The notes: generated by a model not told the origin, from the sequence alone. DNA of 64,000 nt from Candidatus Multivoradales bacterium (GCA_965223155.1 CBDCVR010000015.1:928001-992000), one strand, 5' to 3'; shown: positions 22,028 through 54,284, counted from the stretch's first letter. Numbers and translations: made by a program.

Positions 22028-25000
22028 TTGGCACGGCAGAACGAACGGTTGGCACATCGGCTTGGCGTAGCTTTTAGGGATCGTTCCGGAGACGGCTCGA
22101 TCGCATCGGTTGGGCTCATCGGCCCGCTCAAATCCGGTGCCGCATTCGCGCTCATTGCGGCATGGGGGCTTTTCTTCCTCTGGGCCACCCCGGCGGCGGC
22201 CCAGAACAACTGCTTCGGGGACGTCACCTGGGGCGGCGACGTCGACTCGACGATCGCAAAGCCCGAGAACTGCACCGCGGACACCCGCTGCTATCCACCC
22301 GAGCTTGCCGGCTCGGGAGTTTCGTTCGCTCCGGGCTGCGACCCATCGGCCGGGCCCTGCGACGTCACCGTCACGGCCCAGCTCCGCTTCCCCGGCAACC
22401 GGGACAACGAAGACTTCGTCGATGCCTCGGGCCTCGCCTACAGCTTCGCGACCTTTGCCGTCTTCGACAACACCGGCTCCGGCGTCGGCGGCTGCGGTGT
22501 TGCCGGCGCGGTCATCCAATGGGACACCGGCACCGCGACCATCCGCGGCCAGGCCAAGAAGGGCGACATCTTCACCATCGTCGCCCGCGCCTGCCCGTGC
22601 TCGCCCGAAGGCCTCTGCCCCCTGTGCGAGAAGACCGAGTCCTTCGTCATCCCGATCGGCAGCCCGCCGCCCCAGGACGACTGCGACGACTGCAAGGCCT
22701 GCCCGCTGCCGGGCGCTTCGGCCGGCGGCGGCGGGCCCAAAGGGACCACCGAAACCAACTCCGGCCCCGAGACGCTCGTCTACTACACGGCCGGCGGCAC
22801 GGGCGCACCCGGCACCCCCGGCGCGGACGAGCACGCCGCCACCCTCGGCCACGGCTTTGCCCACAACTTCTCCGAGCGGCTCGTCGCCGTGCCCGACGAC
22901 CCGTACGACGCCGAGCGCGTCTGGATGCTGACCCGCAAGGGAACCTTCCGCCAGTTCTGGAACCTCCAGGGCGGCGAGTACCTGGGCACCGCGCCCTCGG
23001 ACGAGTACCGCACGCTCTTTGCCACGGCCGCGGGCTACGAGCTTCGCGGCCTCGACGGCACGGTCCAGAGCTTCGATGCGGCCGGCGTCTGGACCGGCAC
23101 GGCCGACGCCTCGGGCAACGCCACGACCCCTGCCTACGACGCCTCCGGTCTTCTCACCGCGGTCGCTCTCCCCGACGGCAGACAAGAGACCTTCACCTAC
23201 CACCCGGCCGGCTCCGGCCAGGACGGCAAGCTCGCCACGATCACCGAGGTCGGCATCGACGGCACCTCGACCTTGACCTGGACCTACACCTGGTCCGGAG
23301 ACACCCTCGTCCGGATCGACGCCCCGGACGGCACCGCTCTCGCCTACGGCTACGACGACCCGCGCCACCCGGGCTTTCGAACTCTGACCGAACGGATCGG
23401 CACCGACGCGAGCCGCCGCGTCGAGCGCGGCTACGCCTACGACGACGAAGGCAACGTCGTCCAGACCTGGAGAGGCGATACCGTCCCCGCCGTTGCCGGA
23501 GTGAGCGCTTCGCTGCCCGGATCGAACGCCGTCGATCACGAGACCTTCGCCTTCGACGACCCGGTCAACCCGACCGTCACCACCAGGACCGACGCTCTCG
23601 GCAAGATCGCGACCTACGCCATCGGCCGCGACCCTTCGAGCGGCAAGGCCCGCGTGACCTCGATTGCGGGCGACTGCCCGGCCTGCGGCCTCGGTCCCAA
23701 CAGCCAGATCTTCTACGACGACCCGGACCATCCGCTGCTTCCCACTCGCTCGATCGACGGCCGCGGCACGGTCACCGCCATGACCTACGACGGCAACGGC
23801 AGGATGACCTCGCGCACGGAGGCGCTCGGCACCCCCGAGGAGCGCACCACGACCTGGAGCTACGACGATCCCGCCTTCCCGGCCGTCGCGACCACCATCG
23901 AGGAGCCCTCCACAACTGCTGGAGCCAGCCGCACCACCACCCTCGTTCTCGGCGCCGACGGCCACCCCACCACCCGCACCGTCTCAGGGGTCGAGGCCGC
24001 TAGCGCCTTCTCGCTGACCACCGCCACCACCTACACCCCCGAGGGCCAGGTCGCAACGATCGATCCCCCCGGCTTCGGCTCCGACGACGTCACCGGCTTG
24101 ACCTATGACCCCGCCCGCGGAGGCCAGATCCCGCTTTCCCGCACCGACCCGATCGTCGGAAGCCTTCCCAACGGCGGCGCCACCACCTTCGGCTATGACC
24201 CCTTCAACCGCAGAACCTCGGTCACCGACCCCAACGGGCTCGAGACCGTCACCGCCTACGATGCCGCCGACCGGGTGACCTCCGTCATCCAGAAGGGCGC
24301 GACCGCCGCCGAGGATCTCGTCACCGTCCATCAGTACACCGCCTTCGGCGACTTGGAGCGCACCATCCTCCCCGAAGGCAACGCCATCGAGTACGCCTAC
24401 GACTCCGCCGGACGCCTGACCTCGATCGGGCGCGGCCCCGCCCCCGGGGCCCTCCTCGAAAGAACCCTCTACGAGCTCGACGCCGCCGGCAACCGCACCC
24501 GCGAGACGCTCCAGGGCTTCGACGGCTCGGCCTGGACCACCGCCTCCGAGACCGCCTACCTCTACGACTCCCGATGCCAGCTCGACAAGATCGTCCGCGC
24601 CCCCGGAACCCCCCAAGAAGCCATCACCGAGTACCGCTACGACTGCAACGGCAACCTCGAATCCCTCTGGGACGCCAACCACTCCTCGGCCTCCGATCCC
24701 CCGACCCAGAGCTACACCTACGACCGCCTGGACCGGTTGACCGCCATCGACCAGCCCTGGGCAACTGGGCAACCAGGAGAGATGGCAACCACCACCTACG
24801 CCTACGACGTCCAGGACCACCTCGTTGCCGTCACCGACGCCGAGGGCAACACCACCGCCTACGTCTACTCCGACCGGGATCTTCTGACCCGCCAGGACTC
24901 CCCCGTCTCCGGGGCCTCGACCTTTGCCTACAACGACCACGGCGAGCTCGTCTCCGAAACCGACGGCCGCGGGGTCACAACGACCCGGACCATCGACGCC

Positions 25001-26911
25001 GCCCGCAGGGTCACCTTCCTCGACTCCGACGAGAACGCCCTCGATACCGCCTACACGTACGACGACCCCGCGGTGCCGTTCTCGGCGGGCAGGCTCACGG
25101 CCATCACCCGAGACACCCAGTCGATCGACTACGCTTACGACCGCTTCGGACGCACCATCCAGGACGGCACCCTCGCCTACGCCTACGACACGAACGGCAA
25201 CCGCACCGCAGTCACCTACCCAGGCGGAGTCGCCGCCACGACCACCCACGACTACGCCGATCGGGAGGAGACCCTGGCCGTCACGGATGGCGCAACCTCG
25301 ACCAACCTCGTCACCGCCGCCGCCTATCTCCCCTCGGGCCCCCTCACCTCCCTCGCCCTCGGCAACGGCTTGGCCGAGACCCGATCCTTCGATGCCCGGT
25401 ACTTCCCGGCAGGCATCGCCGTCCCCGGACGACTCGACTGGACCTACTCGACCGACACGATCGGCAACATCCTAGAGATCGCTGACACCGGAGGAGGCGG
25501 CGACCGAACCTACACCTACCAGGACGTCCACTACTTCTTGACTTCAGGCACCGGCCCCTGGGGCAGCCTGGCCTTCACCTACGACAAGATCGGCAACCGG
25601 TTGTCTGAGACCCGGGACGCCGGCGGCTCTCCCCAGAACCGGCCCTACGCCTACCCGGCTTCGCCTTCAGGAGGCAACCTCCCCAAGCTCGCCTCGATCA
25701 CGGACCCCGCGGGAGACCGTCTCGAGCGCTTCTTCTTCGACGACGCCGGCAACCAGACCTACCGCGCCACTCAGACCGCCAAGCACCGGCTGAGCTACGA
25801 TGCCCTGGGACGGATGGGCCAGATCAAGACCGACTCGGACGAAACCGCGGGGGCTCTCGTCACCCTCGCCTACGACGGCAGGAGCTTCCTCCGGGAGGCC
25901 ACTCGAAGCCCCTTCCCCGGCCAGCCCGCCACCGTCACCACCAACCCAACCTACAGCTCCGACGGGCTTCTCATGCACAAGGCCACCAGCGAGGTGCTGG
26001 GACCGGACGACCCGAGAGGCGAGGGGAGTGCCACCAGCGACGCCTACGTCCTCTACTTCGCGGGCAGGCCCGTAGGCGTCCTCGACAATGAGACCGTGAC
26101 CCCGCTCGGTGGAACGCCGACCAGCACCTCGACCCTCACCTACCTCACCACCGACCACCTCGGCACCCCCGTCCTCGCCACCGACGACTCCGGCACCACC
26201 ACCTGGGCCGGAGGCTTTGAACCCTTCGGGGACGACTGGCAGGCGGAGACGGGTACCGGGGCGAGTGACGCCGGAGTCTTCCTGCGCTTCCCCGGCCAGT
26301 GGGACGACCCGGCCTGGGGTGGGGCCGGGACGGCGGGCACTAGCGCCTCAGACCCGGGCTTCTACTACAACGTCCACAGGTGGTACGAGCCGGGGACGGG
26401 GAGGTATGCGAGGGTCGATCCGCTGGGCAAGACAAGCATCGACGGCACGAGACATCTCTTTGCATACTCCGAAAGTCGGCCGCTCTTCTTTGTGGACCCA
26501 AATGGCCTCAAAGTAGTGATCGAGGACGGCGGCGTCCAAACCGCCTATGACAACCTAAAGGACTGCTTCCCGTTTTTCCGTAACTTGATGGACCACTACG
26601 AGACGCAGACAGGCTTCCGTGGTCGAGACATCACATGGTCTATCAAGCAGCCCGTGTGGAACCCTCCAAGCTGCAATGCTGGCGGCCTCCGAGGTGAAGA
26701 GCGGACGGCTTGGGTTCCAAAAGAACTTGATTGTGAACTCATGGCCAAATGCATGGTCCACGAGTTCTACGAACGATGGCTCATTGACGTCGGCGGACAT
26801 CCGCAGTCGAAGGGCGGGACTGGGAGCGCAAACGACATGGCCAAGGCGAAGGAATCAACCTTGCCGGCGGAGTGTTGCTGTCCGACTTCCTCTTCAAAGG
26901 AGAGTGAGTGA
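22028..26911 (+). CDS. RHS repeat protein 1 (full length, signal peptide, HExxE-type C-terminal tip)
   Basis: YD repeats; core end RFPGQW..YYNVHRWYEPGTGRYARVDPLG..DPNGL; signal-like ..WGLFFLWATPAAA|Q; tip contains MVHEFYE. Exact start uncertain. Confidence 0.92.
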   Translation: MARQNERLAHRLGVAFRDRSGDGSIASVGLIGPLKSGAAFALIAAWGLFFLWATPAAAQNNCFGDVTWGGDVDSTIAKPENCTADTRCYPPELAGSGVSFAPGCDPSAGPCDVTVTAQLRFPGNRDNEDFVDASGLAYSFATFAVFDNTGSGVGGCGVAGAVIQWDTGTATIRGQAKKGDIFTIVARACPCSPEGLCPLCEKTESFVIPIGSPPPQDDCDDCKACPLPGASAGGGGPKGTTETNSGPETLVYYTAGGTGAPGTPGADEHAATLGHGFAHNFSERLVAVPDDPYDAERVWMLTRKGTFRQFWNLQGGEYLGTAPSDEYRTLFATAAGYELRGLDGTVQSFDAAGVWTGTADASGNATTPAYDASGLLTAVALPDGRQETFTYHPAGSGQDGKLATITEVGIDGTSTLTWTYTWSGDTLVRIDAPDGTALAYGYDDPRHPGFRTLTERIGTDASRRVERGYAYDDEGNVVQTWRGDTVPAVAGVSASLPGSNAVDHETFAFDDPVNPTVTTRTDALGKIATYAIGRDPSSGKARVTSIAGDCPACGLGPNSQIFYDDPDHPLLPTRSIDGRGTVTAMTYDGNGRMTSRTEALGTPEERTTTWSYDDPAFPAVATTIEEPSTTAGASRTTTLVLGADGHPTTRTVSGVEAASAFSLTTATTYTPEGQVATIDPPGFGSDDVTGLTYDPARGGQIPLSRTDPIVGSLPNGGATTFGYDPFNRRTSVTDPNGLETVTAYDAADRVTSVIQKGATAAEDLVTVHQYTAFGDLERTILPEGNAIEYAYDSAGRLTSIGRGPAPGALLERTLYELDAAGNRTRETLQGFDGSAWTTASETAYLYDSRCQLDKIVRAPGTPQEAITEYRYDCNGNLESLWDANHSSASDPPTQSYTYDRLDRLTAIDQPWATGQPGEMATTTYAYDVQDHLVAVTDAEGNTTAYVYSDRDLLTRQDSPVSGASTFAYNDHGELVSETDGRGVTTTRTIDAARRVTFLDSDENALDTAYTYDDPAVPFSAGRLTAITRDTQSIDYAYDRFGRTIQDGTLAYAYDTNGNRTAVTYPGGVAATTTHDYADREETLAVTDGATSTNLVTAAAYLPSGPLTSLALGNGLAETRSFDARYFPAGIAVPGRLDWTYSTDTIGNILEIADTGGGGDRTYTYQDVHYFLTSGTGPWGSLAFTYDKIGNRLSETRDAGGSPQNRPYAYPASPSGGNLPKLASITDPAGDRLERFFFDDAGNQTYRATQTAKHRLSYDALGRMGQIKTDSDETAGALVTLAYDGRSFLREATRSPFPGQPATVTTNPTYSSDGLLMHKATSEVLGPDDPRGEGSATSDAYVLYFAGRPVGVLDNETVTPLGGTPTSTSTLTYLTTDHLGTPVLATDDSGTTTWAGGFEPFGDDWQAETGTGASDAGVFLRFPGQWDDPAWGGAGTAGTSASDPGFYYNVHRWYEPGTGRYARVDPLGKTSIDGTRHLFAYSESRPLFFVDPNGLKVVIEDGGVQTAYDNLKDCFPFFRNLMDHYETQTGFRGRDITWSIKQPVWNPPSCNAGGLRGEERTAWVPKELDCELMAKCMVHEFYERWLIDVGGHPQSKGGTGSANDMAKAKESTLPAECCCPTSSSKESE

Positions 26912-27543
26912 ACGCGCCAGCGCGGCATTCCGCAAACATGCTGTTGCTTGCCGTCTTCGTTGCGGGTCTTGGTACCTTCGCGATCTTTGCCAAGCACAAC
27001 CTCTTTTTCGGTGTCCTCTTGGTCTTGTGCGTTGTGGCCGACTTATGGGTTGCTGGCCAGTCTTCAACTTGGCGAAGATTCGTGGTCGTGCTGCACTATC
27101 TGATTCTGTCTGCTGTGCTCTTCGCGGCCTTCCTTCGGGTTGCCAGCTACGCTGGCTTTCCGACTGAACTCGGACCGTACTTCCCGGAAGTTGTTTTCTA
27201 CGAGTGGTCTCGACCCGGAGTGTACTTGGCAATACTTGGGACATGCGTGGGTTGTATCACTACCGTCGCGTGCATCCTCGCCTTGCTCCCGAAGTACAAG
27301 GAACACTGCGCGCGAAGCGATTTGTTTGGCTACCTTCTATTCCTTGCCAGTATTCTCGCAGTGCCGATCTGGCTAGCTTTTTCCAGCCCCATACGGAACC
27401 TGAGTGCCTATGACCAGGACGACCTGGCGGGCTTCGGACTTGTCTCTCTTGTCAGCCATGTTACGCCGGCGCTTGCAACTCATGGTCTAGTCGCATTTGT
27501 CCTCCTCTTCCAACGGAGTCGTTCGGCGCGATTGAAGGTCTGA
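26908..27543 (+). CDS. Multi-TM membrane protein, putative cognate immunity/partner of RHS1
   Basis: GTGA overlap with RHS1 stop, about six hydrophobic segments, lower GC. Confidence 0.7.
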   Translation: MNAPARHSANMLLLAVFVAGLGTFAIFAKHNLFFGVLLVLCVVADLWVAGQSSTWRRFVVVLHYLILSAVLFAAFLRVASYAGFPTELGPYFPEVVFYEWSRPGVYLAILGTCVGCITTVACILALLPKYKEHCARSDLFGYLLFLASILAVPIWLAFSSPIRNLSAYDQDDLAGFGLVSLVSHVTPALATHGLVAFVLLFQRSRSARLKV

Positions 27544-27813
27544 GACGTTGTAGTGAGGCGTTCCCTGTAAGCCGGTCTGACTCCCCGGCCGGCGCCTTCT
27601 TGGGACTGATTCAATGAAGTCAGCGAGATTCCTCTGCTCTTTTTCGGACCAGCAGCGGCCGTCGATATCCTGTTTCAAAAATAGAATCGACCAAACGGGG
27701 CTTTGGAGCCGTTTCCTGAATTGCGGTGAGCAATGCGGCCCCGACGAGCCGTGCTCAGGCCAGTTCGAGTCGATTGTGGCAGGAAACTAGGGTGGAATTC
27801 GGTGACAGATGAG

Positions 27814-27827
27814 ATGAGTCGGTCGGT
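27814..27827 (+). repeat. Left subterminal inverted repeat ATGAGTCGGTCGGT
   Basis: Perfect 14-bp reverse complement of ACCGACCGACTCAT at 29152-29165. Confidence 0.9.
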
Positions 27828-27898
27828 CTCCAGCTGGGACACTGTGCCAGTTGGAGATAACCAAGAATCGGCATCAGAGCCGAGAAAGGAGACCGACC

Positions 27899-28912
27899 AT
27901 GGAGTATCTTGGCATCGATGTTCACTCGAAGTACAGCGAGGTGTGTGGCGTATCAGAAGACGGTGAGGTGACGGTTCGCCGGCGGGTTCCGACGACCGAG
28001 ACGGGCCTGCGAAGGTTCTTCGCCAATCGGGAACGCTCGCAGGTGACGCTCGAGAGCGGTCCGGTCACACCCTGGGTCTATCGACTGCTGTCTGAGCTCG
28101 GCCATGAGGTGATGGTGGTCAATCCACGCCGGGTACGTCTGATCGCGGAATCGACCCTGAAGACGGACGGAATCGACGCCGAGATCCTGGCTCGTTTGAG
28201 CCGGTTGGATCTGGGTTTGCTTCGACCAGTCTACCAGCGCACAGGTGAGGCCCAAGAGCTTCGGACGCGTCTTCGGGTCCGAACGAGTCTGGTGAAGACC
28301 AGGACCTCGCTGATCAACTCCGTACGCGGAACGCTGCGGGCACAGGGCTACCGAGTGCCCTCATGTCCGGCGAAGAGCTTCGTGGCTCGGTACGCGTCGA
28401 TGTCGGTCGAAGCCGGCCTGTTGGGAGCGCTCGAACCTCTGGTAACGACAATCGGCGAGCTGACCGATCGGATCCACCATCTCGAAGACGACCTCATCTC
28501 CGAGTCGAGATCAAACGAGCTGGTCCGTCGGCTGCAGACGGTTCCTGGTGTGGGGCCTCTGGTGAGCCTTGCGTTCGTCGGCTGGATGGATCGTCCGGAT
28601 CGGTTCGAGAAAAGCCGCGACGTCGGAGCGTGTCTGGGCTTGAGACCGTCGCTTCGCAGCTCAGGAGGGCATGAGGTCAGGGGCCGGATCACTCGCGAGG
28701 GCGACTCGGAGATGCGCAGACTCTTGGTGCAGGCAGCTCATGCGGCGTTGAACTGTCGCAAAGAGTCGTCACTCAAGAGATGGGCTGAGGGCCTGGTCGA
28801 GAGGCTGGGTAAGGGCAAGGCCGTGGTCGCGCTAGCTAGGAAGATCGCGGTGTTGCTCCACAGGCTGTGGGTGACAGGTGAGAGCTTCCGAGCCTTTCCC
28901 AAGGCAGCGTAG
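27899..28912 (+). CDS. IS110-family DEDD recombinase/transposase
   Basis: GIDVH, LESG, KTDGIDA, VPGVGP, GLRPSLRSSGG, ALARKIA. RBS AAGGAG before ATG 27899. Confidence 0.95.
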   Translation: MEYLGIDVHSKYSEVCGVSEDGEVTVRRRVPTTETGLRRFFANRERSQVTLESGPVTPWVYRLLSELGHEVMVVNPRRVRLIAESTLKTDGIDAEILARLSRLDLGLLRPVYQRTGEAQELRTRLRVRTSLVKTRTSLINSVRGTLRAQGYRVPSCPAKSFVARYASMSVEAGLLGALEPLVTTIGELTDRIHHLEDDLISESRSNELVRRLQTVPGVGPLVSLAFVGWMDRPDRFEKSRDVGACLGLRPSLRSSGGHEVRGRITREGDSEMRRLLVQAAHAALNCRKESSLKRWAEGLVERLGKGKAVVALARKIAVLLHRLWVTGESFRAFPKAA

Positions 28913-28949
28913 AAGAGATAACTAGACGACCAACAAGCAAGGACGGATT

Positions 28950-29095
28950 GAGAGGTTCGATGACTCCGAAAGTATCCTTGGTGGCCCCGACACCGTGTGA
29001 CAGATGGGAGCATCGATTCCTAAACGGACGCAAAACTCACCATGCACCGGTTCAAAGAAGAACCCTACAGAGTGCGAATAGAAGCTCGTCCCAAG
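28950..29095 (+). ncRNA. Putative bridge/seekRNA in the 3' non-coding end of IS copy 1
   Basis: Two stem-internal loop-stem modules. The loops carry GTATCCT and GTGACAG (target arms) and ATAGAAG (circle-junction arm). Boundaries approximate. Confidence 0.75.
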
Positions 29096-29151
29096 CCTCG
29101 ATCCAAACCTAAGGAAAACTACAAAAAGAAGAAACGAAACTCTTGACGCCA

Positions 29152-29165
29152 ACCGACCGACTCAT
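29152..29165 (+). repeat. Right subterminal inverted repeat
   Basis: ACCGACCGACTCAT, preceded by -35-like TTGACG (29143-29148). Confidence 0.9.
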
Positions 29166-29189
29166 AGAAGGATACTTATCTCTTTCGCC

Positions 29190-35078: not shown

Positions 35079-35130
35079 CGACGAGCGATCGTCGAGGTCT
35101 GCTCGCAAAGCCTTGTGCACCCCAAGGAGC

Positions 35131-40895: not shown

Positions 40896-40907
40896 TCTCG
40901 CCATCGA

Positions 40908-42234: not shown

Positions 42235-42257
42235 GTGATACCGGAAGGTCGATCTGC

Positions 42258-43406: not shown

Positions 43407-43552
43407 CTTGGGACGAGCTTCTATTCGCACTCTGTAGGGTTCTTCTTTGAACCGGTGCATGGTGAGTTTTGCGTCCGTTTAGGAATCGATGCTCCCATCT
43501 GTCACACGGTGTCGGGGCCACCAAGGATACTTTCGGAGTCATCGAACCTCTC
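43407..43552 (-). ncRNA. Putative bridge/seekRNA of IS copy 2
   Basis: Mirror of 28950-29095. Confidence 0.75.
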
Positions 43553-43589
43553 AATCCGTCCTTGCTTGTTGGTCGTCTAGTTATCTCTT

Positions 43590-44603: not shown

Positions 44604-44709
44604 GGTCGGTCTCCTTTCTCGGCTCTGATGCCGATTCTTGGTTATCTCCAACTGGCACAGTGTCCCAGCTGGAGACCGACCGACTCATCTCATCTGTCAC
44701 CGAATTCGC

Positions 44710-47700
44710 CCTCGATTGCGGGCGACTGCCCGGCCTGCGGCCTCGGACCCAACAGCCAGATCTTCTACGACGACCCGGACCATCCGCTGCTCCCTACCCG
44801 CTCGATCGACGGCCGCGGCACGGTCACCGCCATGACCTACGACGGCAACGGCAGGATGACCTCGCGCACGGAGGCGCTCGGCACCCCCGAGGAGCGCACC
44901 ACGACCTGGAGCTACGACGATCCCGCCTTCCCGGCCGTCGCGACCACCATCGAGGAGCCCTCCACAACTGCTGGAGCCAGCCGCACCACCACCCTCGTTC
45001 TCGGCGCCGACGGCCACCCCACCACCCGCACCGTCTCAGGGGTCGAGGCCGCTAGCGCCTTCTCGCTGACCACCGCCACCACCTACACCCCCGAGGGCCA
45101 GGTCGCAACGATCGATCCCCCCGGCTTCGGCTCCGACGACGTCACCGGCTTGACCTATGACCCCGCCCGCGGAGGCCAGATCCCGCTTTCCCGCACCGAC
45201 CCGATCGTCGGAAGCCTTCCCAACGGCGGCGCCACCACCTTCGGCTACGACCCCTTCAACCGCAGGACCTCGGTCACCGACCCCAACGGGCTCGAGACCG
45301 TCACCGCCTACGATGCCGCCGACCGCGTGACCTCCGTCATCCAGAAGGGCGCGACCGCCGCCGAGGATCTCGTCACCGTCCATGAGTACACCCCCTTCGG
45401 CGACTTGGAGCGCACCATTCTCCCCGAAGGCAACGCCATCGAGTACGCCTACGACTCCGCCGGACGCCTGACCTCGATCGGGCGCGGCCCCGCCCCCGGG
45501 GCCCTCCTCGAAAGGACCCTCTACGAGCTCGACGCCGCCGGCAACCGCACCCGCGAGACGCTCCAGGGCTTCGACGGCTCGGCCTGGACCACCGCCTCCG
45601 AGACCGCCTACCTCTACGACTCCCGATGCCAGCTCGACAAGATCGTCCGCGCCCCCGGAACCCCCCAAGAAGCCGTCACCGAGTACCGCTACGACTGCAA
45701 CGGCAACCTCGAATCCCTCTGGGACGCCAACCACTCCTCGGCCTCCGATCCCCCGACCCAGAGCTACACCTACGACCGCCTGGACCGGTTGACCGCCATC
45801 GACCAGCCCTGGGCAACTGGGCAACCAGGAGAGATGGCAACCACCACCTACGCCTACGACGTCCAGGACCACCTCGTTGCCGTCACCGACGCCGAGGGCA
45901 ACACCACCGCCTACGTTTACTCCGACCGGGATCTTCTGACCCGCCAGGACTCCCCAGTCTCCGGGGCCTCGACCTTTGCCTACAACGACCACGGCGAGCT
46001 CGTCTCCGAAACCGACGGCCGCGGGGTCACCACCACCCGGACCATCGACGCCGCCCGCAGGGTGACCTTCGTCGATTCCGAAGAGAACGCCCTCGATACC
46101 GCCTACACGTACGACGACCCCGCCGTTGCCTTCTCGGCCGGACGCTTGACCGCTATCTCCCGCAACGGCCACTCCATCGACTACGCTTACGACCGCTTCG
46201 GACGCACCATCCAGGACGGCACCCTCGCCTACGCCTACGACACGAACGGCAACCGCACCGCAGTCACCTACCCAGGCGGCGTCACCGCCACGACCACCCA
46301 CGACTACGCCGACCGGGAGGAGACCCTGGCCGTCACGGATGGCGGCAGCGGAGGAGGCACCACCAACCTCGTGACCGCCGCCGCCTATCTCCCCTCGGGC
46401 CCCCTCACCTCCCTCGCCCTCGGCAACGGCTTGGCCGAGACCCGATCCTTCGACTCGAGGTACTTCCCGGCCGGCATCACCGTCCCCGGACGACTCGACT
46501 GGACCTACTCGACCGACACGATCGGCAACATCCTAGAGATCGCTGACACCGGAGGAGGAGGCGACCGAACCTACACCTACCAGGACGTCCACTACTTCCT
46601 CACCTCGGGCACCGGACCCTGGGGCAGCCTGGCCTTCACCTACGACAAGATCGGCAACCGGTTGTCTGAGACCCGGGACGCCGGCGGTTCTCCCCAGAAC
46701 CGGCCCTACGCCTACCCGGCTTCGCCTTCAGGAGGCAACCTCCCCAAGCTCGCCTCGATCACGGACCCCGCGGGAGACCGTCTCGAGCGCTTCTTCTTCG
46801 ACGACGCCGGCAACCAGACCTACCGCGCCACTCAGACCGCCAAGCACCGGCTGAGCTACGATGCCCTGGGACGGATGAGCCAGATCAAGACCGACTCGGA
46901 CGAGACCGCCGGGGCCCTCGTCACCCTCGCCTACGACGGCAGAAGCTTCCTCCGGGAGGCCACTCGAAGCCCCTTCCCCGGCCAGCCCGCCACCGTCACC
47001 ACCAACCCCACCTACAGCTCCGACGGGCGCCTCATGCACAAGGCGACGAGCGAGGTGCTGGGACCGGACGACCCGAGAGGCGAGGGGAGTGCCACCAGCG
47101 ACGCCTACGTCCTCTACTTCGCCGGCAGGCCGGCCGGCATCCTCGACAATGAGACCGTAATTCCACTCGGTGGACCGCCGACCAGCACCTCGACCCTCAC
47201 CTACTTGACCACCGACCACCTCGGCACCCCCGTCCTCGCCACCGACGCCAGTGGAGCCAGTACCTGGAGTGGAGGCTTTGAGCCCTTCGGGGACGACTGG
47301 CAGGCGCAGGCCGGTACCGGGGCGAGTGAGGCGGGGGTCTTTCTGAGGTTTCCCGGGCAATGGGACGATGCGGCCTGGGGCGGGGCGGGAGCGGGGGCGG
47401 GGGCCGCTAGTGCCTCAGACCCGGGCCTCTACTACAACGTCCACAGGTGGTACGAGCCGGGGACGGGGAGGTATGGGAGGGTCGATCCGCTGGGGTTGGT
47501 TGCTGATATCCATCTCTATCGCTACGCGAAGCAGGACCCCTTGACTTGGATCGATCCTCTCGGGTTGCAGCTTGTGAAACCTCCTGACATTCCGTACTTT
47601 GAGTCACCTGGCGACAGCCTACCCCCCAACTGTTCGGCTGGACCCTGGGTCTTCGATGGCTTCGGCGTTCGGAGTGGGCCTCAAAAAATCCGCTGGGTGC

Positions 47701-48014
47701 TCAGGCGCGCTCAACGAAAATGGGTGCGGATCCCACCTGCTTTTGGCATAGCACTACCAATCCCGACCGGCAGTTGTGACTGCTTCTATGTACCAGAGGG
47801 AGCGATCCGACCGAACCAAAGGCTTGAACGTTGGAAGCGTCGTCTTGAGTGCGATGGCTGCCCACTAGATGAGGAAGTGCGAGAGCGACCCGGGACCGGC
47901 CCTGAAAATGAGTGGGAGGATCGTTCTCCAGTTCTTCCGACCTCAGGCGTCCGAAAGATTTCCGCCCCTGGGTGCATTTGCCCACCAGTGCTCGATGAAA
48001 AGCTACCCTCCTAG
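44710..48014 (+). pseudogene. Orphan RHS core fragment 6 with tip CT6 (paralog of CT3)
   Basis: Core homology starts at CCTCGATTGCGGGC (SIAGDCPAC) right after the REP arm; the upstream part of the ORF is IS antisense sequence. Confidence 0.85.
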
Positions 48015-48849
48015 GATTCCTGGGCGACCTCGCCCGCACCCCATCCGAGCCCTCTACTGTCTCGCTGCGCTCTTGGCGTGGAATTGTGGGAACAACGAAA
48101 CAAGCCCCGACTTCCCTTCGGCGTTTTCGGCCCTCTATTTCAAATCCGAGCACTATGAGGTGGGAGATACCTTCGACCAGGAACTTCGTCTCCTTGCTCC
48201 GATCCGCTGGCCTGAAGCTGCGAAACTCTTTCATGAAGCATGGCGCGGCGACCCACGAGCCGGACTTGCCCTTCAACGTCTCTATGAACACAAAGGCTTT
48301 CCTACCGCAGCAGCTCTCTTCGCGCTCGCCTCACGCAACGCCATCAACGTGCCAGACCTACTGCCTGCTTGGTCACAGCTCGGGGGTGCGTCTGAGTTGT
48401 ACTCCGATCTTGAGGGTGAGGTGGCCCGAGCGGCCTTCCGTGGAGACTGTGCCAGAGCGGTCGGCCTCGCCCAACCGGTCGTACTCGACTCGGAAGTAGG
48501 CCCCAGCCTGCAACTACTCGTGGAATGGGCTCACGCAGTGGTCTGTTCGTCGAGTCGAGCTTCCAGGGACCTTCATTTCGCTAATCTGGAAGCCGCTGTT
48601 CGCATCTATTCGTCACTAGTCGCAGAAGCTAGGGTGATCCCGACCATGTACGCAAACGATCAGCTGTCAGCGTGGACGCAGCTTTCAGGGGCCCTTTCGG
48701 AGCTAGAGCAACCCGCCCTCGCAAGCGCGGCTCTTTCTCTTGGACTTCAACTGTCTCCAAAGGCAGAACCGAGTCGAACAAGACAGATAGAACGGCGCGC
48801 TCGCTACTTGAGGAAGAAAGCTGACAGGGCGCGCGACACACCCGGCTGA
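47995..48849 (+). CDS. Putative lipoprotein, partner/immunity for CT6; diverged paralog of 34299-35078
   Basis: LLAWN|C; shared motifs WP.AA.LF...W.GD..AG..L..LYE.KGF, VEWA, LEAA.R.Y..LV.E, W..LS.AL..L.QP. Confidence 0.72.
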   Translation: MKSYPPRIPGRPRPHPIRALYCLAALLAWNCGNNETSPDFPSAFSALYFKSEHYEVGDTFDQELRLLAPIRWPEAAKLFHEAWRGDPRAGLALQRLYEHKGFPTAAALFALASRNAINVPDLLPAWSQLGGASELYSDLEGEVARAAFRGDCARAVGLAQPVVLDSEVGPSLQLLVEWAHAVVCSSSRASRDLHFANLEAAVRIYSSLVAEARVIPTMYANDQLSAWTQLSGALSELEQPALASAALSLGLQLSPKAEPSRTRQIERRARYLRKKADRARDTPG

Positions 48850-48852
48850 GCG

Positions 48853-49234
48853 CGGCACGTCCTGGACCACCACCTCCGAGACCGCCTACCTCTACGACTC
48901 CCGATGCCGGCTCGACCGGATCGTCCGCGCCCCCGGAACCCCCCAGGAGGCCATCACCGAGTACCGCTACGACTGCAACGGCAACCTCGAGTCCCTCTGG
49001 GACGCCAACCACGACTCCGCCTCCGACCCCCCGACCCAGAGCTACACCTACGATCGGCTCGACCGCCTGACCGCCATCGCCCAGCCCTGGGCAACTGGGC
49101 AACCAGGAGAGATGGCCACCACCACCTACGCTTTATGGAACACGTTCCAGGACTGCAATCAGAAATGTGGCAAGCTATGCGGCCCGGATGAGCCTTGCTC
49201 AGATCAATTTCAGTCAGTAGCTGCAGGCAACTGA
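48853..49234 (+). pseudogene. Internally deleted RHS remnant (second copy)
   Basis: Same TTTYA|LWNTFQDC junction as 35131-35430 with a longer 5' core piece. Confidence 0.75.
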
Positions 49235-49237
49235 CAA

Positions 49238-49501
49238 ATGCGTGCTCGACCTGCTTCTTGGCTGTCTCCACGAAGTGCTGTTGTTGTGCTTGTCCTTGTA
49301 TTCCTCGCCGGCTGTTGGTGGCGTATGGGACTGCTAGAGAAGGCTCTCGTCCTTCGCGATGTGGTCGGCATTGAAGTGGAGAAGCTGGACACAGCGCTGG
49401 ATCGCGTGTGGTTTGTGGTTGGCTCGCCTTTGGCGTTCCTGGCTATTGGCCTGGCACTCTTGGGACTAGCGCACATCCTGCTTCGTGTTCTGTCTAGATA
49501 A
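49238..49501 (+). CDS. Small 2-TM protein, orphan partner/immunity gene (copy B)
   Basis: Same translation as 35434-35697, offset 13,804 nt. Confidence 0.65.
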   Translation: MRARPASWLSPRSAVVVLVLVFLAGCWWRMGLLEKALVLRDVVGIEVEKLDTALDRVWFVVGSPLAFLAIGLALLGLAHILLRVLSR

Positions 49502-49532
49502 GCGTCGCTGCTCGTGGAGTGATGCTCTTTAG

Positions 49533-52500
49533 GTGAGGCCCGACATGCTGAGATGTCTAGGCCTTCGAGTTGCATCGATCTCGAAAAGGCTGCTCAACCA
49601 TCGACCGACCATCCCATCCGCCACCTCAATCGTCGAATTGCGTTTCCGCGAACGCGCCGGCCGGCCCCGCCAGGCGGCCCGGCTGTCGCTCCTCGCGGCA
49701 GCCGGCACGGCTTTCCTCTGGGCCACCCCGGCGGCGGCCCAGAACAACTGCTTCGGGGACGTCACCTGGGGCGGCGACGTCGACTCGACGATCGCAAAGC
49801 CCGAGAACTGCACCGCGGACACCCGCTGCTATCCACCCGAGCTTGCCGGCTCGGGAGTTTCGTTCGCTCCGGGCTGCGACCCGTCGGCCGGGCCCTGCGA
49901 CGTCACCGTCACGGCCCAGCTCCGCTTCCCCGGCAACCGGGACAACGAAGACTTCGTCGATGCCTCGGGCCTCGCCTACAGCTTCGCGACCTTTGCCGTC
50001 TTCGACAACACCGGCTCCGGCGTCGGCGGCTGCGGTGTTGCCGGCGCGGTCATCCAATGGGACACCGGCACCGCGACCATCCGCGGCCAGGCCAAGAAGG
50101 GCGACCTCTTCACCATCGTCGCCCGCGCCTGCCCGTGCTCGCCCGAAGGCCTCTGCCCCCTGTGCGAGAAGACCGAGTCCTTCGTCATCCCGATCGGCAG
50201 CCCGCCGCCCCAGGACGACTGCGACGACTGCAAGGCCTGCCCGCTGCCAGGCGCTTCGGCCGGCGGCGGCGGGCCCAAAGGGACCACCGAAACCAACTCC
50301 GGCCCCGAGACGCTCGTCTACTACACCGCCGGCGGCACGGGCGCGCCCGGCACCCCCGGCGCCGACGAGCACGCGGCCACTCTCGGCCACGGCTTTGCCC
50401 ACAACTTCTCCGAGCGGCTCGTCGCCGTCCCCGACGACCCGTACGACAGCGACCGCATCTGGATGCTGACCCGCAAGGGCACCTTCCGCCAGTTCTGGAA
50501 CCTCCAGGGCGGCGAGTACCTGGGCACCGCGCCCTCGGACGAGTACCGCACGCTCTTTGCCACGGCCGCGGGCTACGAGCTTCGCGGCCTCGACGGCACG
50601 GTCCAGAGCTTCGATGCGGCCGGCGTCTGGACCGGCACGGCCGACGCCTCGGGCAACGCCACGACCCCTGCCTACGACGCCTCCGGTCTTCTCACCGCGG
50701 TCGCTCTCCCCGACGGCAGACAAGAGACCTTCACCTACCACCCGGCCGGCTCCGGCCAGGACGGCAAGCTCGCCACGATCACCGAGGTCGGCATCGACGG
50801 CACCTCGACCTTGACCTGGACCTACACCTGGTCCGGAGACGAGCTCGTCCGGATCGACGCCCCGGACGGCACCGCTCTCGCCTACGCCTACGACGACCCG
50901 CGCCACCCGGGCTTCCGGACTCTCACCGAGCGGATCGGCACCGACACCAGCCGCCGCGTCGAGCGCGGCTACGCCTACGACGACGAGGGCAACGTCGTTC
51001 AGACCTGGAGAGGCGACACCGTTCCCGCCGTCGCTGGAGTGAGCGCTTCGCTGCCCGGGCCCGCCGCCGTCGATCACGAGACCTTCGCCTTCGACGACCC
51101 GGTCAACCCGGCGGTGACCACCCGGACCGACGCTCTCGGCAAGATCGCGACCTACGCCATCGGCCGCGACCCTTCGAGCGGCAAGGCCCGCGTGACCTCG
51201 ATTGCGGGCGACTGCCCGGCCTGCGGCCTCGGACCCAACAGCCAGCTCGTCTACGACGACCCGGACCATCCGCTGCTCCCTACCCGCTCGATCGACGGCC
51301 GCGGCACGGTCACGGCCATGGCCTACGACGCCAACGGCCGCATGACCTCGAGGACCGAAGCCCTCGGCACCCCTGAGGAGCGCACCACGACTTGGAGCTA
51401 CGACGATCCGGCCTTCCCGGCCGTCGCCACCACAATCGAAGAGCCCTCGACAACTGCCGGAGCCAGTGGAGCCAGCGGAGCCAGCCGCACCACGACCCTC
51501 GTTCTCGGCGCCGACGGCCATCCCACCACCCGCACCGTCTCGGGAGTCGAGGCCGCAAGCGCCTTCTCGCTTACCACCACCACTACCTACACCGCCGAGG
51601 GCCAGATCGAGACGATCGATCCGCCCGGCTTCGGCACCGACGACGTCACCGCCTTTACCTACGACCCCGCCCGGGGCGGCCAGATCCCACTCTCCCGCAC
51701 CGACCCGATCGTCGGAAGCCTCCCGAACGGCGGCGCCACCACCTACGCCTACGACCCCTTCAACCGCCGAACCTCGGTCACCGACCCCAACGGCGTCGAG
51801 ACCGTCACCGCCTACGACGCCGCCGACCGCGTGACCTTCGTCACCCACAAGGGCACGACCGCCGCCGAGGACCTCGTCACCGAGAACCGCTACAACGCCT
51901 TCGGGGACCTCGCCCTCACCATCCTGCCTCAAGGCAACGCCATCGAGTACGCCTACGACGACACCGGACGCTTGACCTCGATCGGACGCGGTCCCGCCCC
52001 CGGGACCCTCCTCGAGAGGACCCTCTACGAGCTCGACGCCGCCGGCAACCGCACCCGCGAGACGCTTCAATCCTTCGACGGCACGTCCTGGGTCACGACC
52101 TCCGAGACCGCCTACCTCTACGACTCCCGATGCCGGCTCGACCGGATCGTCCGCGCCCCCGGAACCCCCCAGGAATCCGTCACCGAGTACCGCTACGACT
52201 GCAACGGCAACCTCGAGTCCCTCTGGGACGCCAACCACGACTCGGCCTCGGATCCTCCGACCCAGAGCTACACCTACGACCGGCTCGACCGCCTGACCGC
52301 CATCGCCCAGCCCTGGGCCGGAGCGGGGGCCGGCTCTGCCACCACCACCTACGCCTACGACGTCCAGGACCACCTCGTCGCCGTCACCGACGCCGAGGGC
52401 AACACCACCGCCTACGTCTACTCCGACCGGGATCTCCTGACCCGTCAGGACTCTCCCGTCTCAGGGGTTGCCACCTTCGCCTACAACGACCACGGCGAGC

Positions 52501-54284
52501 TCGTCTCCGAGACCGACGGCCGAGGCGTCACCACCACCCGGACCGTTGACGCTCTCGACCGCGTCACCTTCCTCGACTCCGACGAGAACGCTCTTGACAC
52601 CACCTACACCTACGACGACCCCGCCGTTGCCTTCTCGGCCGGACGCCTGACCGCCATCTCCCGCAACGGCCATTCCATCGACTACCGATACGACCGCTTC
52701 GGACGCACCACCCAGGACGGCACCCTCGCCTACGCCTACGACGCGAACGGCAACCGCACCGGCGTCACCTACCCGGGCGGAGTCTCCGTCACGACCACCC
52801 ACGACTACGCCGACCGGGAGGAGACCCTGGCCGTCACGGATGGTGGCGCCGGGGGAGGGACCACCAGCCTCGTCTCCGCCGCCACCTACCTCCCCTCGGG
52901 CCCGCTCACCTCCCTCGTCCTCGGCAACGGTCTTACCGAGACCCGAGCCTTCGACCCCCGGTACTTCCCGGCCGGGATCTCCGTTCCCGGACGCCTCGAC
53001 TGGGCCTACGCGACCGACTCGCTCGGCAACATCCTCCAGATCGCAGATGCCGGTCCAGGCCCGGACCGCACCTACACCTACCAGGACGTCCACTACTTCC
53101 TGACCTCGGGCACCGGGCCCTGGGGCTCTCGTGCCTTCACCTACGACAAGATCGGCAACCGGCTCTCTGAGACCCGGGACGGCACTGCTGACTCCTACGC
53201 CTACCCGGCCTCCCCCTCCGGAGGCAACCTCCCCAAGCTCGCGACGATCGCTACGGGAAACACCGCCTCCGAGCGCTTCTTCTTCGACGACGCCGGCAAC
53301 GAAACCTACCGCGCCACCCACACCGCCAAGCACCGGCTGAGCTACGATGCCCTGGGACGGATGAGCCAGATCAAGACTGACTCGGGCGAGACCGCGGGGG
53401 CCCTCGTCACCCTCGCCTACGACGGCAGGAGCTTCTTGCGCCAAGCCGCCCGAAGCCCCTTCCCCGGCCAGCCCGCCACCGTCACCACCAACCCCACCTA
53501 CTCCTCCGACGGGCTTCTCATGCACAAGGAGACGACCGCGGTCTTGGGACCCGAAGATCCCCGAGGCGAGGGCAGCGCCATCAGCGACGCCTACGTCCTC
53601 TACTTCGCCGGCAGGCCCGTCGGCATCCTCGAGAACGAGACCGTGACCCCGCTCGGCGGATCGCCCGCGAGCACCTCCACCCTCACCTATCTCACCACCG
53701 ACCACCTCGGCACCCCGGTCCTTGCCACCGACGACTCCGGCACCACCACCTGGGCCGGAGGCTTCGCACCCTTCGGGGACGACTGGCAGGCGCAGGCCGG
53801 TACCGGGGCGAGTGAGGCGGGAGTCTTCCTGCGCTTCCCGGGCCAGTGGGACGACCCGGCCTGGGGCGGGGCGGGAGCGGGGTCCGCTAGCGCCTCAGAC
53901 CCTGGCCTCTACTACAACGTCCACAGGTGGTACGAGCCGGGGACGGGGAGGTATGGGAGGGTCGATCCGTTGGGGTTCCGACAGGGAACCGAACCGTTCC
54001 TGTACTCCCGCAACAATCCCGTCGTCTGGGCTGACCCGCTAGGCCTCGCGCCTTGCGAGTGCACGGATGCGTGCCCTAGCGGGGAGTGGACCTATGTCGG
54101 TGCGTCAGGCGGATTTGGATTTGGCGGAGGCCTAGCAGGCCAATGGGGCACCTTTCATTGCAACGGCAAACCTGAGGTCGACGTCCCTGTGAAGGCCGTG
54201 TGTGGCGTGCTCGGCTTCGCAGAAGACGGAAGATCAGCTGCTGCGTTCGATCAATTGGCGAGACAACAGTATGCGGCTCTTTGA
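49533..54284 (+). CDS. RHS repeat protein 7 (full core, apparently truncated tip)
   Basis: Signal peptide, GAS x3 insertion (51459-51485), DPLGL then CECTDACPSGEW..; runs into GT2 remnant DNA at ~54220. Confidence 0.88.
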   Translation: MRPDMLRCLGLRVASISKRLLNHRPTIPSATSIVELRFRERAGRPRQAARLSLLAAAGTAFLWATPAAAQNNCFGDVTWGGDVDSTIAKPENCTADTRCYPPELAGSGVSFAPGCDPSAGPCDVTVTAQLRFPGNRDNEDFVDASGLAYSFATFAVFDNTGSGVGGCGVAGAVIQWDTGTATIRGQAKKGDLFTIVARACPCSPEGLCPLCEKTESFVIPIGSPPPQDDCDDCKACPLPGASAGGGGPKGTTETNSGPETLVYYTAGGTGAPGTPGADEHAATLGHGFAHNFSERLVAVPDDPYDSDRIWMLTRKGTFRQFWNLQGGEYLGTAPSDEYRTLFATAAGYELRGLDGTVQSFDAAGVWTGTADASGNATTPAYDASGLLTAVALPDGRQETFTYHPAGSGQDGKLATITEVGIDGTSTLTWTYTWSGDELVRIDAPDGTALAYAYDDPRHPGFRTLTERIGTDTSRRVERGYAYDDEGNVVQTWRGDTVPAVAGVSASLPGPAAVDHETFAFDDPVNPAVTTRTDALGKIATYAIGRDPSSGKARVTSIAGDCPACGLGPNSQLVYDDPDHPLLPTRSIDGRGTVTAMAYDANGRMTSRTEALGTPEERTTTWSYDDPAFPAVATTIEEPSTTAGASGASGASRTTTLVLGADGHPTTRTVSGVEAASAFSLTTTTTYTAEGQIETIDPPGFGTDDVTAFTYDPARGGQIPLSRTDPIVGSLPNGGATTYAYDPFNRRTSVTDPNGVETVTAYDAADRVTFVTHKGTTAAEDLVTENRYNAFGDLALTILPQGNAIEYAYDDTGRLTSIGRGPAPGTLLERTLYELDAAGNRTRETLQSFDGTSWVTTSETAYLYDSRCRLDRIVRAPGTPQESVTEYRYDCNGNLESLWDANHDSASDPPTQSYTYDRLDRLTAIAQPWAGAGAGSATTTYAYDVQDHLVAVTDAEGNTTAYVYSDRDLLTRQDSPVSGVATFAYNDHGELVSETDGRGVTTTRTVDALDRVTFLDSDENALDTTYTYDDPAVAFSAGRLTAISRNGHSIDYRYDRFGRTTQDGTLAYAYDANGNRTGVTYPGGVSVTTTHDYADREETLAVTDGGAGGGTTSLVSAATYLPSGPLTSLVLGNGLTETRAFDPRYFPAGISVPGRLDWAYATDSLGNILQIADAGPGPDRTYTYQDVHYFLTSGTGPWGSRAFTYDKIGNRLSETRDGTADSYAYPASPSGGNLPKLATIATGNTASERFFFDDAGNETYRATHTAKHRLSYDALGRMSQIKTDSGETAGALVTLAYDGRSFLRQAARSPFPGQPATVTTNPTYSSDGLLMHKETTAVLGPEDPRGEGSAISDAYVLYFAGRPVGILENETVTPLGGSPASTSTLTYLTTDHLGTPVLATDDSGTTTWAGGFAPFGDDWQAQAGTGASEAGVFLRFPGQWDDPAWGGAGAGSASASDPGLYYNVHRWYEPGTGRYGRVDPLGFRQGTEPFLYSRNNPVVWADPLGLAPCECTDACPSGEWTYVGASGGFGFGGGLAGQWGTFHCNGKPEVDVPVKAVCGVLGFAEDGRSAAAFDQLARQQYAAL

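Follow-up and report, generated by a model that had tools for sequence, protein, structure and literature searches.

How Rhs toxins that carry a signal peptide cross the outer membrane of the diderm cell that makes them, and how they then enter a target, is a question for which a compact case is offered by a family of rearrangement hotspot (Rhs, YD-repeat) proteins encoded in a 64,000-nucleotide stretch of DNA from Candidatus Multivoradales bacterium (GCA_965223155.1 CBDCVR010000015.1:928001-992000), hereafter the window, where an rhs array occupies positions 22028-54284 of the + strand. A first-pass annotation, made from the sequence alone, had described the array as a polymorphic system acting outside the cytoplasm, made of envelope toxins or of kin-recognition ligand/receptor pairs. 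The data presented here point to a Sec-exported Rhs polymorphic toxin/immunity locus of an acidobacterial host, a reading that we consider likely, and one that is probably independent of a type VI secretion system (T6SS).

The array contains seven open reading frames (ORFs) with RHS cores (Table 1), all of which matched Pfam RHS_repeat and/or PF03527. RHS/YD repeats (PF05593) were detected in six ORFs with E-values of 1e-35 to 7e-11, and R5f had a value of 0.003; PF03527 matches were found in the seven cores, above cut-off only in R5f. Three genes (R1, R4 and R7) are full length and matched NCBIfam Rhs_assc_core (TIGR03696) above cut-off as well as TIGR01643; the other four (R2f, R3f, R5f and R6f) are orphans truncated at their 5' end. 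The seven cores reported at first pass were recovered, but the DPxG...DPxGL pair attributed to all of them is canonical in five only, R4 (DPAG...DRLGL) and R5f (DPLGL...DALGL) having a variant second motif. These are predicted aspartyl autoprotease motifs. The DNA homology of R1, R4 and R7 ends at the first DPxG (26432, 40155 and 53974, respectively), where protein identity also collapses. Self-comparison gave 96.3% DNA identity between R1 and R4 over 4284 nt, 90.5% between R1 and R7, and 92.1% between R4 and R7 over 5056 nt, this last figure including approximately 600 nt upstream and an RHS-core remnant of 198-279 nt. The layout is that of a classical rhs locus, with a conserved carrier, a displaced C-terminal tip and downstream orphan tip cassettes.

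Relatives of the array were collected by a pattern scan of genome contigs, one genome per species, which returned 50 loci (L001-L050) in 31 metagenome-assembled genomes (MAGs), with best identities to the window of 38-47%. Signal peptide, transmembrane (TM) and lipobox calls are heuristic, made from hydropathy, motifs and alignment. The N-termini of R1, R4 and R7 consist of a positively charged stretch, a hydrophobic stretch and the sequence TPAAA/QNNC, where the slash marks the predicted cleavage site. Two relatives with 37% identity have PAAAQ unchanged, and the alignment of 21 family members showed a hydrophobic leader followed by a conserved Cys. A hydrophobic stretch (10-residue mean hydropathy of at least 1.8) preceded the N-terminal domain (N-domain) in 25 of the 27 relatives with an intact N-terminus. 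R1, R4 and R7 are predicted to carry a Sec-dependent, signal peptidase I (SPI)-type signal peptide cleaved at AAA/Q, and these are the three genes to which the first-pass annotation had assigned both a signal peptide and a Cys-rich N-terminal domain. The mature protein is built from an N-domain of approximately 170 residues, a Gly-rich linker, an RHS shell of approximately 1150 residues, the core and a polymorphic tip of 80-150 residues. The shell carries four conserved Cys, two in CPAC and the others at C861 and C884; its CxxC motif (CPAC, CPSC or CPTC; window positions ~37409-37420 in R4) is kept in 98-100% of 42 aligned members.

The N-domain of R4 (residues 70-238) contains 13 Cys and was only found on RHS proteins. 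A word-index search of 5.8 billion clusters returned two relatives besides the window's own protein, both of which combine a signal peptide and the Cys-rich domain with an RHS shell and an HExxH tip rich in Cys. An exhaustive phmmer search of 1.84 billion representatives returned 38 proteins with E-values of 1e-3 or less, six of them at 1e-10 or less and none at 1e-30 or less. The domain is located at the N-terminus in 36 of these; P0008 and P0019 matched only through internal repeated stretches and, having Pfam matches that were below cut-off or to non-RHS families only, were treated as spurious. Twenty of the 38 were scanned with Pfam: eight of the 12 proteins longer than 400 residues were RHS proteins, P0014, P0025 and P0033 had no family, and no family was assigned to the eight shorter ones. 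Pfam and NCBIfam hold no model for the N-domain, the alignment of which gave only weak Pfam matches to DUF6531 and DUF7933 in 4 of 21 members. A profile of the N-domain matched 33 of the 50 related loci from the beginning of the domain; in the other 17, only the linker and shell start are shared, behind other N-terminal regions. AlphaFold2, given 21 sequences, modelled the domain as a beta-sandwich with a mean predicted local distance difference test (pLDDT) of 71.4 over the whole model and values of 84-97 in most 10-residue blocks of residues 1-150, four blocks dipping to 60-77. Foldseek retrieved nothing from the PDB at an E-value of 0.001 or less, the matches being generic Ig/FnIII/CARDB-like sandwiches with template-modelling scores of 0.17-0.25. 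On these searches, the N-domain is a new family confined to RHS proteins, predicted to be disulfide-rich or metal-binding; the modelled fold is of a type used by binding or adhesion modules, which does not assign it a function.

A Pfam scan of 32 window ORFs found no PAAR, prePAAR, VgrG, Eag, SpvB, WXG, TPS, NHL or secretion machinery family, in agreement with what the first-pass annotation had stated for PAAR, VgrG, SpvB, WXG and secretion machinery. The annotation's framing of Gram-negative RHS proteins as T6SS effectors overlooks the 'T2SS' (type II secretion system) export class of Zhang 2012, the Myxococcus xanthus Rhs proteins and the bacterial teneurin-like proteins. The window proteins might be the cargo of a T6SS, or of another injection machine encoded elsewhere, and keep their hydrophobic N-terminus uncleaved. 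Only 64 kb of the genome was seen, and the shell is homologous to T6SS Rhs shells, its best PDB profile matches being Tse15 (at the shell start) and Salmonella Rhs, both weak (E-values of 0.037-0.8). We regard this explanation as very unlikely. The PAAR, prePAAR, VgrG and Eag families are missing from the scanned ORFs, T6SS genes do not recur among the 50 related loci, the AxA/Q site is conserved in the relatives with 37% identity, and cytoplasmic assembly fits poorly with an N-domain that has 13 Cys.

Every tip in the window is Cys-rich, as claimed at first pass, with 5-11 Cys in 78-152 residues. Cys accounts for 6.8% of tip residues versus 0.2-2.1% in the shell and 1.19% in flanking ORFs, and at least 5 Cys were present in the last 130 residues of 32 out of 35 complete relatives (median 8). 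The R3f and R6f tips are 78% identical, with differences concentrated in the last 48 residues. The R1 and R5f tips are 25% identical and have an invariant HExxE...H in common; a word-index search with their profile matched only the window's own proteins, and the proposal that they are zincins akin to the HExxH tips of the relatives was rejected (hhalign probability 0.2%). For the R4 tip, a word-index search gave a single relative, 70% identical and carried by another RHS protein (P0043), and L029 has a 41%-identical orphan. Kinship of the R4 tip with the largest tip cluster of the relatives (GPNSNTFAG, weakly DUF3750-like) was not retained and stays a weak lead (hhalign 2%, E-value 0.024); its H...H...NxC..F pattern could be read as LRAT-like, of the permuted papain type. 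The R7 tip aligns over approximately 60 residues with the glycine-zipper tips of L019, L046 and L048 and then ends; by this alignment it is truncated at its 3' end, at the right edge of the array.

The tips of the relatives were more informative. Pfam analysis of the last 180 residues of the 35 complete relatives identified, above cut-off, the prokaryotic/group XII secretory phospholipase A2 (PLA2) family in L025 (13952-14491) and L029 (13898-14437), both followed by multi-pass membrane ORFs. The L027 tip (13565-14104) matched the serum amyloid A family (PF00277, E-value 4e-27), which is best known from vertebrates. Two other relatives, L006 and L015, gave weak DUF3750 matches, L013 matched only PF03527, and 29 had no match. 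This analysis returned no nuclease, deaminase or ADP-ribosyltransferase family. None of the results named at first pass as contradicting its reading was obtained: a signal region is present, no tip matched a known family of cytoplasmic toxins in Pfam or NCBIfam, and the linkage to the adhesin described below is kept in part of the family. Secreted-type PLA2 is the only enzyme family recognised among the tips of the relatives, most of which are unclassified. Inspection by eye added HExxH tips (L002, L005, L014, L041, L047, P0003 and P0004) and long glycine zippers (L011, L019, L046, L020 and L023).

Six of the seven window tips are followed by a membrane or lipoprotein-like ORF, and all six partners begin overlapping the preceding rhs stop codon or within approximately 25 nt after it. 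The P1 start overlaps the R1 stop (GTGA), the P3 start overlaps the R3f stop (ATGA) and P2 overlaps the R2f stop. Hydropathy indicated a multi-pass protein for P1, one N-terminal TM segment for P2, one or two for P4 and two or three for P5. The claim that every partner is a TM protein or lipoprotein stood for these six and failed for R7, which has no credible partner. No partner, P1 included, matched a Pfam or NCBIfam family. P3 and P6 (34299-35078 and 47995-48849) are 37% identical while their cognate tips are 78% identical, which looks like faster divergence on the immunity side. An R2f-type tip and a P2-type partner occur together in L009 and L025, and so behave as a toxin/immunity cassette. 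A crude hydropathy and lipobox test of the ORF downstream of 35 relatives found a TM segment in 17 and only a lipobox-like motif in six. The tip and partner repertoire fits an action on the membrane or periplasm. This view, put forward at first pass as action outside the cytoplasm, is supported only indirectly, by the 6.8% Cys of the tips, the membrane or lipoprotein-like partners and, among the relatives, the PLA2 tips and the HExxH and glycine-zipper tips identified by eye; Cys-richness by itself is weak evidence in this respect. The other half of the claim, a polymorphic toxin/immunity system with export by Sec, is well supported.

A giant adhesin gene on the - strand adjoins R1 head-to-head, as reported at first pass. 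Pfam detected nine Calx-beta domains in its upstream ORF (16338-22001) and 13 Calx-beta domains plus DUF11 and VWA in the downstream ORF (7162-16497). A Sec-type signal peptide was identified in the protein, the start of which (LECNGAPVAFEGGLPAGW) is conserved. The 1887-residue ORF closes with an Arg-rich, seemingly out-of-frame tail, and the repeats go on in the 3111-residue ORF, in another frame; this is probably one gene of approximately 4950 codons with a frameshift near 16338-16497, due to a sequencing error or to pseudogene formation, or else two genes. Linkage was counted over the 35 loci with at least 5 kb of upstream sequence, in the 10 kb upstream of the RHS gene. Adhesin orthologues were found in six of these loci, and among N-domain loci in 5/26 loci and 5/18 MAGs. 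Their identity over the N-terminal 700 residues, which are free of repeats, is 45-47%; they share the start motif and are divergent from the RHS gene in four cases and co-directional in two. In a quick IQ-TREE phylogeny of 36 RHS shells, from which L009, L013, ORFs shorter than 1500 residues and 3'-incomplete ORFs were left out, adhesin-linked rows fell in one clade of 10 rows (SH-like approximate likelihood ratio test, 99%), L014 being counted as linked since it shares an array with L018. The exceptions in this clade are L008, with only 4 kb upstream, and L011, the upstream flank of which is full of more rhs genes. The outer flanks of the window differ from those of L001 and L005. By these counts, the adhesin and the rhs array form a unit that is conserved in one clade but not throughout the family; either a common function or synteny by descent could account for this. 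For the earlier suggestion that the Rhs proteins are displayed with the adhesin, the support is synteny in 6/35 loci, in only one RHS clade.

The adhesin bears on two other explanations of the locus. The tips could be aimed at non-bacterial targets or prey (protists, fungi) or at Gram-positive cells, the partners only protecting the producer's envelope in transit and playing no part in kin discrimination, since a toxin that folds in the producer's periplasm would need self-protection whatever its target. The PLA2 tips of L025 and L029, the serum-amyloid-A-like tip of L027 and the adhesin linked to the array in one clade fit this idea. We consider it unlikely: no eukaryote-directed domain was found, and orphan cassettes combined with fast partner divergence, as between P3 and P6, are the usual signature of an intraspecific arms race. 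This signature of polymorphic toxins is established knowledge (Zhang 2012, PMC3482391).

The second explanation holds that the array encodes non-toxic, teneurin-like surface ligands for adhesion or kin recognition, with tips as tags and partners as receptors. The Ig-like beta-sandwich modelled for the N-domain, the linkage to the adhesin and the absence of a catalytic family match for the window tips agree with it. The autoproteolysis motifs are, however, kept in all seven cores, and the tips of the relatives include the PLA2 family, as well as HExxH and pore-like glycine-zipper sequences identified by eye. The tight coupling of tip and partner is typical of toxin/immunity pairs. In every solved RHS structure that we know of, the shell encloses the tip, a poor position for a ligand. 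No specific support emerged for the kin-recognition alternative offered at first pass, and we judge it decidedly improbable.

As a toxin/immunity locus, the array would work as follows. The Rhs protein would be exported unfolded through Sec, fold and become oxidised in the periplasm, and then reach the cell surface or the medium, where the N-domain may serve in surface retention or receptor binding. The tip would be the toxin, with the membrane or periplasm as its site of action, and the partners, membrane proteins or lipoproteins, would be the cognate immunity proteins, guarding the producer during export and against attack by siblings. Orphan cassettes would provide a reservoir for tip swapping by recombination in the conserved core, and in one clade, which includes the window, the adhesin may provide cell-cell contact.

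Several observations weigh against this model. Cys-richness is not specific to these tips, as the Rhs tips of E. coli K-12 contain 3, 6, 9 and 6 Cys. The window tips matched no Pfam or NCBIfam family, a PDB phmmer search with three of them found no solved relative, and the structure model of the R4 tip (mean pLDDT 42.5) was too low in confidence for a structure search. On the partner side, P3 and P6 have a signal-like start followed by LLTWGC and LLAWNC, a non-canonical lipobox in both cases, and the ORF downstream of 12/35 relatives had neither a TM segment nor a lipobox in the crude test. No transporter recurs beside rhs genes in the related loci. T6SS markers were absent from the 32 ORFs scanned in the 64-kb window, and T6SS genes may lie elsewhere in the genome. 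Finally, the truncated tip of R7 and the fragmentary state of four of the seven cores make part of the array inert.

The number of Cys in the tips followed an unexpected regularity. Counted from the core motif RWY..GRY to the stop codon, it was odd in 54 of 55 tips (5, 7, 9, 11 or 13): 7/7 in the window, 42/43 among the unique complete RHS-family ORFs of related loci that have the motif, and 5/5 among database relatives. Another 15 ORFs of related loci have no recognisable RWY..GRY motif and were left uncounted. The sole even tip belongs to a 223-residue orphan in L012. Clustering of 44 tips gave 25 sequence clusters, all odd, and within a cluster the counts differ by two (7, 9, 11). In the 30 tips with a strict cleavage motif, no Cys precedes the cleavage site, and the first Cys lies no more than 8 residues after it in 21. 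Control RHS proteins were odd in 10/13 cases (rhsA-D of K-12, with the counts given above; orphan pseudogenes, 3, 1 and 5; plasmid RHS, 3, 9, 1, 1, 1 and 2), a small set with two related members. A literature search on Rhs, disulfide bond, cocoon and cysteine found nothing on such a parity rule.

Extracytoplasmic Cys-rich domains normally have even Cys counts. Against this norm, an odd count suggests that one Cys is reserved for a bond outside the tip, and a disulfide between tip and carrier is one possible reason for the regularity. A single precedent comes from the cryo-EM structure of BiTLP, where C2216 of the tip is disulfide-bonded to C719 of the plug (PMC13018210). A tether of this kind, if true, means that the cargo is covalently bound to its shell, for which the BiTLP structure is so far the sole, 'surprisingly' found, case. 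Outside the tip, the Cys count of the mature protein was odd, giving an even total, in only 19 of 30 proteins (p = 0.20), which counts against an intramolecular tether; the figure became 18/25 when L028, L031, L035, P0020 and P0042, with a cut or misplaced N-terminus, were dropped. A single-disulfide tether would explain the 54/55 odd tips, and release would then need thiol exchange at the target. We tentatively propose a Thermoanaerobaculia-type, T6SS-free contact-dependent delivery in which the shell is held at the surface by the N-domain, the envelope-directed cargo is tethered by a disulfide, the system is deployed together with the adhesin in one clade, and CPAC might aid release by thiol exchange; this fuller scheme is speculative, and we think it rather unlikely to be right as a whole.

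The state of the array raises the question of whether the locus is a largely decaying remnant without present function. Four of the seven cores lack their 5' part, the array contains two IS110 copies, the R7 tip is truncated and without partner, and the adhesin is apparently frameshifted. Orphan cassettes are nevertheless a normal and functional feature of rhs loci, R1, R4 and R7 are uninterrupted ORFs of 1583-1635 residues, and R1 and R4 each retain a full tip with an overlapping partner gene; we give decay very little credence. Neither the IS110 copies nor the truncation of the R7 tip had been mentioned at first pass, and P4 had been implied without being placed. The IS110 copies (1388 bp each, 99.86% identical) are inverted relative to each other, each borders a truncated RHS fragment, and both match DEDD_Tnp_IS110 (PF01548, E-value 9.4e-25) and Transposase_20 (PF02371, E-value 4.7e-21); copy a has a 14-nt sub-terminal inverted repeat. 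If the two copies recombined, 14 kb of the array would be inverted. An inversion mediated by IS110 was considered and rejected, as no RHS pieces were rejoined by it.

Signal-peptide Rhs systems are already known, among them WapA, Myxococcus Rhs, teneurin-like proteins and the 'T2SS' class of Zhang 2012. New features are a family specific to one lineage and equipped with its own N-domain, a set of tips and partners of envelope type, an adhesin unit and the odd-Cys rule. T6SS PAAR-Rhs effectors (P. protegens RhsA; A. baumannii Tse15, PDB 8uxt) share with it the cocoon, the DPxG...DPxGL core, a tip with an immunity gene and orphan cassettes. Unlike these effectors, the window genes have no PAAR, prePAAR, VgrG or chaperone; they have instead a predicted cleavable signal peptide, a Cys-rich N-domain, membrane or lipoprotein-like partners and an acidobacterial host. 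The BC component of Tc toxins is similar in its RHS cocoon, aspartyl autoproteolysis and encapsulated toxic tip, whereas the window ORFs scanned contain no SpvB/TcdB mid domains, beta-propeller or TcA partner and include immunity-like partners. The RHS genes also have none of the features of contact-dependent growth inhibition (CDI) systems that were looked for (TPS domain, FHA repeats, CdiB transporter).

WapA of Bacillus subtilis differs in its monoderm host and wall-binding domains, and its tips are cytoplasmic tRNases with soluble immunity proteins. It has in common with the window genes a signal peptide, RHS repeats, a polymorphic tip with an immunity gene and a role in contact-dependent competition (review PMC10433427). 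MafB/MafI of Neisseria (PMC4287609) is likewise a signal-peptide polymorphic toxin of a diderm with orphan cassettes; MafB has no RHS shell. Rhs4 and Rhs5 of Myxococcus xanthus are large Rhs proteins of a diderm with signal sequences, action without T6SS and a presumed cell-surface location; the WapA review attributes to them a kin discrimination that is independent of T6SS (PMC10433427). Those proteins have approximately 4000 residues and are encoded on Mx-alpha prophages, unlike the window genes, which have no visible prophage context and an N-domain seen in MAGs of Acidobacteriota, one 'Deltaproteobacteria' and one 'uncultured bacterium'.

The bacterial teneurin-like protein BiTLP is Sec-targeted and combines a YD shell, an encapsulated and cleaved tip of approximately 15 kDa and a downstream immunity gene; in E. 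coli, toxicity of its tip requires a signal peptide, that is, delivery to the periplasm, and the tip permeabilises the membrane (PMC13018210). The definition of teneurin-like proteins (TLPs) comprises an FN-plug, an NHL beta-propeller and a YD shell. In R1, R4 and R7, Pfam detected no NHL or propeller family at an E-value of 0.01 or less, and RHS-like sequence begins approximately 90 residues after the N-domain, leaving no room for an NHL propeller in between. Gram-negative TLPs are also predicted to be lipoproteins processed by signal peptidase II (SPII), unlike the SPI-type AAA/Q site of the window. Zhang 2012 lists RHS toxins of the 'T2SS' export class with Tox-PLA2 and metallopeptidase tips, including examples from Acidobacteria, and the part of that paper covering this class describes neither the window-type N-domain nor the family (PMC3482391). 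The tips and partners, having no known families, are also a source of new envelope-acting toxin and immunity folds.

The host is probably an acidobacterium of the class Thermoanaerobaculia. By title, 46 of the 50 related loci belong to Acidobacteriota, mostly Thermoanaerobaculia, three to one 'Deltaproteobacteria' MAG and one to an 'uncultured bacterium', and a window ORF (61718-63994) matched NCBIfam acidobact_VWFA (TIGR03436) with 142.6 bits for a cut-off of 81.25. A myxobacterial host was considered and rejected on these two grounds. A literature search pairing Rhs with Thermoanaerobaculia found nothing. Besides the adhesin, the only recurrent neighbour in the related loci is a helix-turn-helix (HTH)-tetratricopeptide repeat (TPR)-type protein in five of them. 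This TPR protein (435-586 residues) lies 5-7 kb upstream of the RHS gene in L022, L029, L042, L046 and L047, which belong to another clade. Among the three of these proteins that were analysed with Pfam, the one in L029 alone showed an HTH domain; the protein may be a regulator.

Table 1. Coordinates of the rhs array and adjoining features in the 64,000-nucleotide window. The last column gives the tip span over which Cys were counted.
Feature	Position	Strand	Details	Span for Cys count
Adhesin	7162-22001	-	two overlapping ORFs, 16338-22001 (1887 aa) and 7162-16497 (3111 aa); head-to-head with R1	
R1, full-length Rhs	22028-26911	+	1627 aa as longest ORF, likely start TTG 22049; predicted signal peptide to ~22201; Cys-rich N-domain ~22202-22708; RHS shell; core DPLG...DPNGL; tip 26510-26908 (133 aa, 7 Cys)	26363-26908
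P1, multi-pass membrane protein (hydropathy), putative immunity	26908-27543	+	211 aa	
IS110-family copy a	27795-29182	+	transposase 27851-28912; right end abuts truncated R2f	
R2f, orphan RHS 3' fragment	29190-31064	+	624 aa; tip 30726-31061 (112 aa, 11 Cys)	30480-31061
P2	31055-31552	+	likely ATG 31061; N-terminal TM segment, then presumed periplasmic domain	
R3f, orphan RHS fragment	31624-34302	+	892 aa; tip 33856-34299 (148 aa, 7 Cys)	33718-34299
P3, lipoprotein-like	34299-35078	+	259 aa; MKRICLSIALLATLLTWGC	
RHS-core remnant upstream of R4	35130-35327	+	198 bp; belongs to 5-kb unit duplicated at 48934-53969	
R4, full-length Rhs	35729-40636	+	1635 aa as longest ORF, likely start TTG 35834; predicted AAA/Q cleavage at residue 70; N-domain 35936-36448; CPAC residues 561-564; core DPAG...DRLGL; tip 40253-40633 (127 aa, 7 Cys)	40085-40633
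P4, small membrane protein, putative R4 immunity	40602-40895	+	97 aa from GTG 40602; alternative GTG 40662	
R5f, orphan RHS fragment	40675-42234	+	RHS homology from 40908; tip 41776-42231 (152 aa, 7 Cys)	41635-42231
P5, membrane protein	42204-43007	+	likely ATG 42258; two or three TM segments	
IS110-family copy b	43320-44707	-	transposase 43590-44651; within RHS coding sequence; R6f truncated at IAGDCPACG region	
R6f, RHS 5'-truncated by IS110	44577-48014	+	homology from 44710; tip 47568-48011 (148 aa, 7 Cys)	47430-48011
P6, lipoprotein-like	47869-48849	+	likely ATG 47995; LAALLAWNC	
RHS-core remnant upstream of R7	48853-49131	+	279 bp; self-comparison	
R7, full-length Rhs	49533-54284	+	1583 aa; N-domain ~49740-50246; tip 54048-54281 (78 aa, 5 Cys); no partner	53910-54281

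The window has a G+C content of approximately 67%. A promoter scan gave nothing beyond shuffled expectation, and no Rfam families or tRNAs were found. Downstream of the array, an ORF of 1028 residues (58473-61559) has weak Omp85 and LolA-like matches (E-value 3e-4) and is absent beside the related rhs loci. On the other side, 4 kb past the adhesin, a Fic-domain protein is encoded at 2205-3383 (PF02661, E-value 1.8e-14), with a weak NCBIfam likeness to Fic adenylyltransferases.

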